The translations under genes were made by a program, and so were the position numbers. The notes under the pieces were generated by a model, which worked only from the letters and a program-made list of their open reading frames with translations, searched no databases and was not told the origin of the DNA. Shown one piece after another: positions 29,760 through 31,406 of a stretch of 64,000 nucleotides of DNA; within the stretch, counting starts at the first letter, position 1, and every line of letters starts with the position of its first letter. This stretch comes from Candidatus Omnitrophota bacterium (GTDB lineage: Bacteria; Omnitrophota; Gorgyraeia; Zapsychrales; JBDRMG01), in the NCBI GenBank assembly GCA_043812495.1, contig JBDRMG010000064.1, positions 2,799 through 66,798 on the forward strand, written 5' to 3'.

Positions 29760-31406
29760 TTAATGACCGCTGCTAACGCAGGCGCCATGACAAGCCCCAT
29801 GGCAGGCTGAATGACACGCGGAATGACACGCCGAATGACAGGCTGAATGACAGGCATCATGGCACACATTTTGCATAAACGGACCTTCATAACATACCGA
29901 TGTGTTGCGAAACGTCGAGAAATTGTCCTTGAGGTTAGGGATGTTTCCTTCAACCGTTTTTCCGACATCCTGACTTTTCCTGTAATCATATCGATCGGCG
30001 TGGGTTCGCCCATAATAGTGATGATGGTATCCGCCCCAATAAAACGCGTCCTCATCGTTTTTCTTGTAAAGATCGCCCATCTGTTTTTTGTAATATTTCT
30101 TAGTTGCCTCGAGGTCGCAATCCCAAGTCTTCTGCTCAAGACCCGAAGCAATGGTTTTAAACAACAAATTGACTGGATTTTCTTGGATACGTCCGTCGGC
30201 TTCAATGGCACTATAAAGAATGCTCTCGTAAGAGTCATTGCTTCCCATAACGCCGGCAACGCGTTCAACGCGCAAAGGGTCCTCGCTTAGTATTTTAATA
30301 ATCCCCCGGCGTTCCATATTTTGAACAATCAATCCCATGAGAACCGAAAGAGGAATATCCAGAAGAAGGCCCGCTTCAATGGCGTTAAGAGTTTTGCAGA
30401 TTTTCCCTTTCTGCCGGAAGGATCCCACTTGAATCTTGGGAGGAACCCACTCATCCCCTTGCCACTGAATCTTGGAAATCCCGTCCTGGGCAATGAGCAT
30501 TGACTGATGCTTGCGCGTCATCACAAAAAGAGGGAAAAACCCCAAGAATAGTGCGCCAAAGAAAACAATGATAGCGATCGTGACATAATCAAACGGCATT
30601 TCGGCCAAAACACTGCCCGGAAAAAATCGGTTCAAAAGGTAGGATTCCTTCGCTTTTTTTAAATCGCTTTTTTGCCATGGCGCTTTTCCGGCAATGGTGG
30701 AAAGCAGAAAATAAGAAGCATCCGCATAGGTTTGGATCTGAAAATGATAGCGGCTATTAAGATTATTGCGATGGAATCTGACCGTCAGAATATTTTCTCC
30801 TTGAGCATTCTTCACGGAAGGATAATCAATCAGGTAGCGGTCATTGACATACTTTTCCGTCATGAATTTACTCTTTTCCAAATCTTCCTTGGAAACAGAT
30901 TCCGAAGAGAGGGAAATCGGATAATGAACCGTGACTGTTTCGTGCTCAAGGGAATTGTTCCATTGAACCGGCGCCCAGTTAAAAACCGCCAACCGCCCGT
31001 GAGGGCTGTCGGTCAGGGTCACCTGGCCGCTTTGCTGCAAATCCGTTTGATAGCGAAAGAAATAGGTCAGCTCACCGTCTTGAAAGGAGCGGCCTTGGGA
31101 GAGGATAATATCGTATTTCTTATTTGAGAGTTTCTTGATATCGAGAGCGTAGCGGTTACCGTTTTGGTCGAGGGCATAGGCATTCTGATCGTCAAAGCGC
31201 GGTCGCTCTACAAATCCTTCAAAATAAAAACCGTGAAGATTCGCATTCTGGCATACCCAGCGAACAGAATAGGAAATTTGCGCCTTGCCGTCTTTGTCCA
31301 AAACAACATCCGTTTCGACCCAGCGCAGTTTAAATCCATCGGCCCAAGCATGCGAAGGGAATACAAGGCAAAAAAACAATGCGAAGAAAACAAATATTCT
31401 TTTCAT
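29760..31406 (-). CDS. DUF2207-like membrane protein with C-terminal Cys/His repeat tail (ACHS)n
   Basis: Architecture, in order: signal peptide ([22 protein letters not shown]), an ectodomain of about 270 aa, a TM helix ([23 protein letters not shown]), a cytoplasmic domain, and the tail [36 protein letters not shown]. Stop is 3 nt before the radical SAM start. Confidence 0.6.
   Translation of the reverse strand: [548 protein letters not shown]
29775..29860. repeat. In-frame 12-nt tandem repeat (GAATGACA[CG]G[CG]N), about 6 units, encoding the ACHS tail
   Basis: Seen directly: gccatgacaagcc ccatggcaggct gaatgacacgcg gaatgacacgcc gaatgacaggct gaatgacaggca. Confidence 0.8.

Follow-up and report, generated by a model that had tools for sequence, protein, structure and literature searches.

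The C-terminal tail of a membrane protein encoded by a Candidatus Omnitrophota bacterium, an array of short Cys/His repeats, is probably the substrate of a radical S-adenosylmethionine (SAM) enzyme encoded immediately beside it. The protein (gene 1; 548 amino acids, 29760–31406, minus strand) lies in a 64,000-nucleotide stretch of contig JBDRMG010000064.1 (assembly GCA_043812495.1), hereafter the window. Its stop codon (TAA, 29760–29762) is separated by 2 nucleotides from the start codon (ATG, 29757–29755) of gene 2, a 442-amino-acid radical SAM enzyme with a SPASM domain (28429–29757, minus strand), which is followed by gene 3, a second membrane protein. A preliminary description of this DNA drew attention to the repeat and missed this neighbour, which is the key fact for its interpretation: because the tail is almost always encoded right beside the enzyme, it is most likely the substrate of that enzyme. 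In a fuller version of this proposal the enzyme would also crosslink the Cys residues and the product would be retained on the protein, a combination that we regard as, at best, somewhat better supported than not.

The putative core of the substrate (29763–29867, minus strand) reads VCHD-(ACHS)4-(ACHG)2-ACVS-SGH. According to the minus-strand translation of 29760–29921, it consists of eight four-residue units, seven with a Cys–His pair and then a terminal ACVS unit, at the extreme C terminus of the open reading frame (ORF). The 12-nucleotide tandem array visible on the plus strand (29775–29860) is in frame with this ORF, and Tandem Repeats Finder reports the 12-nucleotide period at 29787–29855, with 4.8–5.5 copies and 79–86% matches. 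The preliminary account of about six 12-nucleotide units, in a frame encoding (ACHS)n with overlapping CX3CH motifs, is therefore borne out; CX3CH is the only such spacing present in the tail of the window protein, and CXXCH is absent. Two further ORFs that run across the repeat, 29723–30268 (minus strand) and 29847–30290 (plus strand), are unsupported and were taken as spurious.

We compared 80 distinct tails, comprising 663 units, drawn from 78 GTDB loci and from the metagenome loci L001–L006. The consensus unit is A-C-H-[S/D/G]. Cys fills the second position in all 663 units and thus recurs at every fourth residue of the C-terminal array. At the third position, the 583 non-terminal units invariably have His and the 80 terminal units invariably have Val, which leaves the last Cys without a His of its own in 80 of 80 tails. 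Ala occupies the first position in 640 of the 663 units, with Val in its place in the first unit of 22 of the 80 tails, and the fourth position is Ser (486), Asp (103) or Gly (72). Most tails (74 of 80) have eight or nine units (range, 4–10), the window tail having eight, and the last 70 residues hold 9–10 Cys and 8–10 His, a tightly fixed count. Some natural tails, in the homologues P0375, P0376, P0384 and P0389 and at L056–L081, depart from the pattern. Among the departures are CDSCHSS units, five-residue spacings (ACVHDAC) and, in a clade of Armatimonadota and WOR-3, a conserved six-residue unit within the array (ACHS-ACYVHT-ACHD...). Such variants could reveal the positions that the enzyme needs.

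At the nucleotide level, neighbouring units of the 80 tails differ by 1,092 synonymous and 329 non-synonymous codon changes, and Ser in the units is written with AGY as well as TCN codons. Given eight or nine units in most tails and this synonymous scrambling, the number of copies is under constraint and the repeat is degenerate in its DNA: the tail is selected at the peptide level and is not a slipping DNA repeat. The suggestion in the preliminary description that the array is slippage-prone and may vary in copy number between strains is thus not supported. Nor is the tail missing from homologues, an outcome that the same description had allowed for. In a first protein search, from which 11 full-length proteins were aligned, every complete homologue carries an ACHx tail, down to 33% identity, as do 78 of the 80 GTDB species-representative loci, the remaining two being cut by contig ends. 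When 1.84 billion cluster representatives were searched exhaustively with a profile, 657 matched at E ≤ 1e-3, including 149 at E ≤ 1e-30, and all matches that extend to the profile's C-terminal end have ACH repeats. So regular an occurrence goes well past what chance would give.

The association with the enzyme is equally consistent. An orthologue of gene 2 (38–70% identity) is encoded downstream on the same strand in 75 of the 76 GTDB loci that have at least 1.4 kb of downstream sequence, and gene 3 is syntenic in 72 of 73 GTDB loci, whereas the genes that flank the trio are unrelated between loci. Conservation of the cassette extends to at least 183 species and to 657 sequence clusters at 50% identity. 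It spans more than ten mostly uncultured phyla and is known nearly entirely from metagenome-assembled genomes (MAGs) of uncultured organisms, plus one single-cell genome. Hosts include Omnitrophota (the source of the window), Elusimicrobiota, Planctomycetota, Armatimonadota, WOR-3, Firestonebacteria, Auribacterota, Nitrospinota, Anaerolineae and a Firmicutes MAG. In public records, the cassette proteins are named only ‘hypothetical protein’ or ‘radical SAM protein’. Two relatives of gene 1 that lack the tail (P0370 and P0399) have neither a radical SAM gene nor gene 3 downstream. The loci of tail-less relatives (L087–L090) are low-GC, spirochaete-like contigs on which the gene directly follows a small gene of the TP_0679 family (PF27420); three of these contigs (L087–L089) stop about 1.39 kb past the gene, in a non-coding stretch with internal repeats, and similar places are reported from further samples. 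The preliminary description had thought the tail more plausibly a Zn-, Ni- or Cu-binding element or a crosslinking substrate than a haem attachment site; the near-constant radical SAM/SPASM neighbour favours the crosslinking substrate, and the metal-binding tail, now the less favoured of the two, remains a live rival.

Gene 2 is confidently assigned to its enzyme class. It matches the radical SAM family PF04055 (92.7 bits against a cut-off of 29.5; E = 3.6e-26) and the SPASM family PF13186 (40.6 bits against 21.5; E = 3.2e-10), and its SPASM auxiliary Fe–S cluster domain (28483–28749, minus strand) scores 51.8 bits with TIGR04085 (cut-off, 27). Across 40 orthologues, the CX3CX2C motif (C122, C126 and C129) is invariant and eight Cys of the SPASM region (C337, C351, C354, C369, C408, C411, C417 and C421) are conserved. 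The orthologues also have additional invariant or nearly invariant Cys residues (C88, C133 and C135), with a CNLxCxFCYAxCGC motif (CX3CX2CX3CXC) and a KGC in the linker that follows the N-terminal domain; C88, C133 and C135 could be ligands of a further cluster or have a catalytic role.

The first approximately 105 residues of the orthologues form a conserved domain with matches to PqqD (29443–29757, minus strand, in the window). PF05402 is detected in 12 of the 40 orthologues, at best with E = 1.9e-6, and window residues 1–111 taken alone match the PqqD family TIGR03859 (E = 7e-4), with a score of 19.4 bits that falls short of the cut-off of 46. Judged by these matches, the domain is consistent with a divergent recognition element (RRE) of the kind used in pathways for peptides that are made on the ribosome and modified after translation (RiPPs). 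Assignment to a subfamily is less clear. Among the NCBIfam families listed (the best 25 of 88 for the whole enzyme and the best 25 of 43 for the SPASM region), gene 2 reaches no subfamily cut-off; the best scores are with NirJ2 (147 bits), AhbD (145), PqqE (128) and GeoRSP (126), against cut-offs of 380–500. Because the top scores lie close together and far below the cut-offs, the sequence of gene 2 gives no pointer to its chemistry. The closest sequences in the PDB are PqqE, GDGT-MAS, SuiB, SkfB, CteB and anSME, and relatives with structures comprise peptide and protein maturases together with radical SAM enzymes that act on non-peptide substrates (GDGT-MAS, MoaA and viperin).

The predicted architecture of gene 1 places the tail within reach of such an enzyme. 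We prefer the ATG at 31406 (MKRIFVFF...) as the start codon because all homologues begin there; the GTG at 31505 is disfavoured. The exact protein, with either start codon, is absent from a collection of 15 billion proteins in which both downstream neighbours are present (NCBI, P0017 and P0137), and the deposited annotation may lack gene 1 or call it differently. The AlphaFold2 (AF2) model has a predicted local distance difference test (pLDDT) score of 75.9 and consists of a signal-like helix, a β-sandwich (residues 23–230), a long transmembrane (TM) helix (273–309) and an α/β domain (340–500). The signal-peptide-like N terminus (31341–31406, minus strand, as are all features of this gene) has a hydrophobic peak after Lys or Arg in all family members. 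The extracytoplasmic β-sandwich (30714–31337; strands in residues 23–228, pLDDT mostly 85–94) resembles domain I of M1 aminopeptidases (Foldseek, E = 1.6e-8). The single TM helix (30477–30587) corresponds to a Kyte–Doolittle peak of 2.1–3.0 in 11 of 11 members, and is followed by a cytoplasmic α/β domain of winged-helix-like appearance (residues 340–470, pLDDT 80–91) and then a Tyr/His/Arg-rich linker (together 29904–30386). A weaker hydrophobic stretch at residues 342–360 belongs to the confidently folded globular domain.

The signal-like N terminus and the one strong TM helix agree with the preliminary placement of the repeat at the C terminus of a membrane protein. Lys and Arg are commoner after the TM helix than before it in 10 of the 11 aligned members; from the signal peptide, the single TM helix and this distribution of charge, the tail is predicted to be on the cytoplasmic side, the topology question that the preliminary description had raised. 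The tail itself is modelled at pLDDT 30–45, with no fixed structure predicted. Being predicted as both unstructured and cytoplasmic, it should be accessible to an enzyme that uses Fe–S clusters and SAM.

Immediately before the repeats lies a conserved element, F..FR.S..CY.G.F (29868–29921), defined over 81 distinct sequences. The Cys of its CYEG motif is invariant in the alignment of 11 full-length proteins, as are the WD-D, PPK and FR-G motifs of the cytoplasmic domain. We consider the element a candidate leader-like recognition sequence for the RRE domain of the enzyme. The segment ahead of it, at residues ~440–495 (~29925–30090), is a variable low-complexity linker rich in Tyr, His, Arg and Asp; Tyr makes up 10.6% of the −110 to −30 region across the family, and in one homologue (P0008) the linker has a run of six His.

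By family, gene 1 is at best a distant relative of DUF2207 proteins, as judged by matches to the N-terminal domain PF09972. The window protein scores 16.1 bits (E = 0.013), below the gathering score of 24.4 bits, and its relatives score 26.8 bits (P0003; E = 7e-6, above the gathering score), 19.8 bits (P0011) and 17.0 bits (P0006). Gene 1 shares with DUF2207 proteins a signal peptide, an extracytoplasmic β-sandwich, a TM segment and a cytoplasmic part with a low-complexity tail. The tails of typical DUF2207 proteins are rich in Gly and lack Cys/His repeats. We know of no DUF2207 protein linked to radical SAM enzymes, and no paper joining the two was found in the literature searched.

The start codon of gene 3 (27467–28432, minus strand) overlaps the stop codon of gene 2 as ATGA. 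Its 321-residue product is conserved and is modelled by AF2 (pLDDT 86.4) as two TM hairpins (four TM helices) and a C-terminal domain of an antiparallel β-sheet plus helix. This fold has weak likeness to the type III secretion chaperone Spa15 and to YbjN (E = 0.02–0.1), and the sequence matches no Pfam family and no NCBIfam family at E ≤ 10. The 149 homologues, all named hypothetical, have no invariant Cys or His, and gene 3 shows no transporter- or protease-like fold and no Ser triad. Our guess is that gene 3 docks or chaperones the tail at the membrane. A fourth ORF (197 amino acids; 26877–27470, minus strand), which has no family match, overlaps the stop of gene 3 by 4 nucleotides and looks co-transcribed with the cassette; we left it out of the system because it is absent from all 86 related loci. 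Scans of the cassette with Rfam and for promoters and terminators gave nothing above background.

We hypothesize that the three genes are one conserved, translationally coupled cassette comprising a tail-bearing protein, a radical SAM/SPASM maturase with an RRE and a four-TM partner. The PqqD-like domain of the maturase would dock on the F..FR.S..CY.G.F element just upstream of the repeats, and the enzyme would then move along the flexible cytoplasmic tail, modifying its four-residue units in turn. In the likeliest chemistry, a hydrogen atom would be abstracted and the carbon that bore it joined to a Cys sulfur, giving a sactionine- or ranthionine-type thioether. The SPASM enzymes NxxcB and CteB form saturated thioethers (PMC10989515), and another SPASM enzyme, TvgB, modifies TVGG tandem repeats iteratively (PMC9062424); by analogy with these three, one Cys-centred crosslink per unit might be expected. 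An optional register for such crosslinks would be H-x-A-C (i to i+3), a spacing equal to that of the NxxC motif modified by NxxcB. Pairing of each His/x/Ala with the Cys of the next unit would fit the tails, since the terminal Cys lacks a His and Val is tolerated in the first unit. The modified tail would not be set free as a peptide natural product but would persist as a modification of the protein at the cytoplasmic face: the cassette has no protease or exporter, and the 548-residue membrane protein to which the tail is fused is otherwise conserved and folded, so the product probably stays on the protein.

A more elaborate form of this hypothesis is, in our estimate, unlikely. The seven A-C-H-x units would be converted into a ladder of covalent crosslinks through the invariant His or Ala, producing a cofactor-like structure tethered to the protein, for which gene 3 would act as docking or chaperone partner. 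The bonds could, for example, join His C-beta to Cys sulfur in the HxAC register, and the structure would possibly be redox-active or metal-organizing. To our knowledge, such His C-beta to Cys sulfur bonding has not yet been described for radical SAM enzymes, and we know of no precedent for His/Ala–Cys repeats.

Several observations weigh against the tail being the substrate of the enzyme. Adjacency alone does not prove an enzyme–substrate relationship, and an array of Cys and His is what a metal or Fe–S site would look like. In the MAG of Candidatus Cloacimonetes bacterium 4572_55 (L082), a perfect eight-unit tail occurs without an adjacent orthologous radical SAM gene. At this locus, the sole informative exception, gene 3 is also absent nearby and a different radical SAM gene, with 23% identity, lies at the locus edge. 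The tail-less relatives without the enzyme are distant (28–30% identity, over the N-terminal domain only) and form just two clusters. The families with the top scores for gene 2 are tetrapyrrole enzymes (NirJ2 and AhbD), marginally above PqqE and all far below their cut-offs, and, as regards the RRE, the window enzyme scores below the threshold and only 12 of the 40 orthologues give a match. Finally, the absence of a His from the terminal unit and the Val of some first units would also fit metal sites made of Cys(i), His(i+1) and Cys(i+4).

The strongest of the other explanations, although improbable on balance, is accordingly an unmodified tail that binds Zn, Ni, Cu or a [4Fe–4S] cluster through those Cys(i), His(i+1) and Cys(i+4) ligands, with the radical SAM enzyme acting elsewhere or exchanging clusters or electrons with the tail. 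The tightly fixed number of Cys and His is as defined stoichiometric sites would give, and a period of four would put both residues on one face of a helix, which AF2 draws with low confidence; the tail kept in L082 without the enzyme, and a gene 2 sequence that points to no known thioether-forming clade, count in the same direction. A metal site leaves unexplained, however, why a SPASM enzyme with a putative RRE is nearly always syntenic and translationally coupled over more than ten phyla, why Ala is invariant and why the enzyme is lost in tail-less relatives, and a comparison of the tail with PDB sequences gave no meaningful match and no solved metal-binding protein that resembles it. Metal binding and modification of the tail are not mutually exclusive. 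Rather less probable than a metal site is a RiPP precursor, in which the modified tail would be cut off and released or exported as a peptide and the large protein would be an outsized leader. A radical SAM/SPASM enzyme with an RRE, a repeat core at the C terminus and a recognition-like segment upstream of it follow the logic of a RiPP pathway (PMC9062424), and the membrane protein gene 3 could take part in release. Yet neither a C39 or other peptidase nor an ABC or major facilitator superfamily exporter is present in the cassette or conserved beside it, gene 3 lacks the folds and the invariant Cys, His or Ser triad of such functions, and the 510 residues that precede the tail are well conserved and folded, unlike a leader peptide.

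The CX3CH spacing is known as a rare motif for covalent attachment of haem c, and the preliminary description had mentioned this function; the tail would then be a multihaem element, for which a NirJ/AhbD-like radical SAM enzyme would supply or modify the tetrapyrrole. The top NCBIfam matches of gene 2 (NirJ2, AhbD and AhbC, 120–147 bits) agree with this idea, but these scores are far under the cut-offs of 500–650 bits and barely above that of PqqE, and the enzyme has a putative peptide-binding PqqD-like domain. Maturation of cytochrome c, including ligation of haem c, takes place outside the cytoplasm, whereas the tail is predicted to be inside it. Haems at every fourth residue would be expected to clash sterically, the terminal Cys has no His in any of the 80 tails, and no Ccm or Ccs (CcsBA) gene was found among the 45 ORFs of the window scanned against Pfam. 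On the basis of topology, a motif that is CX3CH and not CXXCH, the lack of Ccm genes in the window and the putative RRE domain of the enzyme, we reject haem c attachment as very improbable. The chance that the repeat is an assembly artefact, as the preliminary description had warned, or a recent slippage expansion without function, is smaller still and practically nil. Assemblers can collapse or expand tandem 12-nucleotide repeats, but the tail, with eight or nine units, is found in independent assemblies from at least 80 species, single-cell and complete-chromosome assemblies included, and the synonymous differences leave little exact DNA repeat on which slippage could act; the distribution of copy number and the scrambling of codons rule this explanation out.

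For the preferred reading, a tail modified by its neighbouring enzyme, the nearest concept already catalogued is the CXXX-repeat radical SAM target system defined by Haft (target, TIGR04117; maturase, TIGR04115; accessory protein, TIGR04114; PF27846). There, too, every fourth residue of a C-terminal array is Cys, and the gene for a radical SAM maturase lies alongside; the links to this system described next, which were curated independently of our analysis, speak for the tail as a substrate. TIGR04117 (‘Cys-Xaa-Xaa-Xaa repeat radical SAM target protein’) gives a weak match here, to the tail only (E = 0.0084–1.5), with 8.9 bits for the window protein, 14.4 for its tail alone and 16.2 for P0014 against a cut-off of 50 bits; PF27846 (‘rSAM target Cxxx repeat’, rSAM_targ_Cxxx_rpt) is precomputed on only P0011 and P0014 of 16 homologues. 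In contrast to the approximately 98-amino-acid target peptide of that system, the array here ends a 548-amino-acid membrane protein, and its unit is a strict A-C-H-x. TIGR04115 is absent among the families listed for gene 2, each of which is below its cut-off, and gene 3 does not match TIGR04114. Two other bioinformatically defined pairs of a Cys-periodic peptide and a radical SAM/SPASM maturase, the ACGX-repeat system (TIGR04340) and the Cys-every-fifth system CefA/CefB (NF038107), are similar in concept and differ in periodicity or unit; their targets are small peptides, and gene 2 scores 92.8 bits against a cut-off of 400 with TIGR04340 and 18 bits against 600 with NF038107. As all scores are below the cut-offs, we reject membership of the CXXX-repeat, ACGX and Cys-every-fifth systems: the cassette works like a system of the CXXX-repeat kind and is not a member of it. 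In the literature searched, we found no experimental paper on the CXXX-repeat system and nothing relevant on the Cys-every-fifth or ACGX systems or on the motif string of the tail.

Characterized systems offer partial parallels. In NxxcA/NxxcB, as for CteB, SkfB and PapB, a radical SAM/SPASM enzyme acts on Cys in short repeated motifs and forms saturated thioethers (PMC10989515), and an H-x-A-C register in our tails would mirror N-x-x-C. CteB, SkfB, StsB and PapB are detectable relatives of gene 2, at a generic SPASM level only (33–102 bits). The ranthipeptide and sactipeptide systems, however, modify small leader–core peptides that are released, and their acceptor residues differ. TvgA/TvgB, which makes poly-cyclopropylglycine, resembles our cassette in its four-residue tandem core (TVGG) and in the iterative action of one radical SAM/SPASM enzyme (PMC9062424); there it is Val that is modified, within a small peptide substrate, and transporter and peptidase genes belong to the cluster. 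For retention of the product, the parallels are with two other enzymes that score on the SPASM region of gene 2 far below their cut-offs, QhpD (TIGR03906, E = 1.1e-4) and anSME (TIGR03942, E = 1.5e-8). In QhpC/QhpD, where the target is the γ-subunit of quinohaemoprotein amine dehydrogenase, and in the anSME system, a radical SAM/SPASM enzyme modifies Cys and the modification is kept on a functional protein. Their targets and motifs differ from ours, and they have neither a tandem array nor a membrane-protein tail.

Elsewhere in the window, a U32-family peptidase-like gene (32067–33299, minus strand), with TrhP and UbiU as best matches, is encoded upstream of the cassette in the same orientation and is not conserved beside it in other loci. 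Two genes for B12-binding radical SAM proteins (10897–12441, plus strand, and 15295–16797, minus strand) are unrelated to the tail. They sit among genes for glycan and nucleotide-sugar biosynthesis, including DegT aminotransferases, glycosyltransferases of families GT1, GT4, GT9 and GT87, a carbamoyltransferase and a GHMP kinase, and may point to an envelope glycan with an unusual methylation or other modification. Two long ORFs, 24766–26850 (minus strand, 694 amino acids) and 12452–14212 (plus strand, 586 amino acids), have no Pfam match at E ≤ 1e-4 and E ≤ 1e-5, respectively.

Radical SAM/SPASM maturases are a main source of new peptide chemistry, and nearly all characterized examples act on small exported peptides, whereas the proposed target in this cassette belongs to a large membrane protein and forms its cytoplasmic tail. 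For its A-C-H-x unit, in eight or nine copies, we found no characterized counterpart. If the tail only binds metal, it would be a well-defined but more ordinary Cys/His metal site. If it is modified, the cassette would provide a clean and easily cloned test case for iterative radical SAM chemistry on a protein, a first functional handle both on the DUF2207-like family and on a conserved trait of phyla that are known almost entirely from metagenomes. A ladder of crosslinks, if one is formed, would add a new class to the protein-derived modifications, one with a wide distribution among uncultured phyla (Omnitrophota and Elusimicrobiota, for example).

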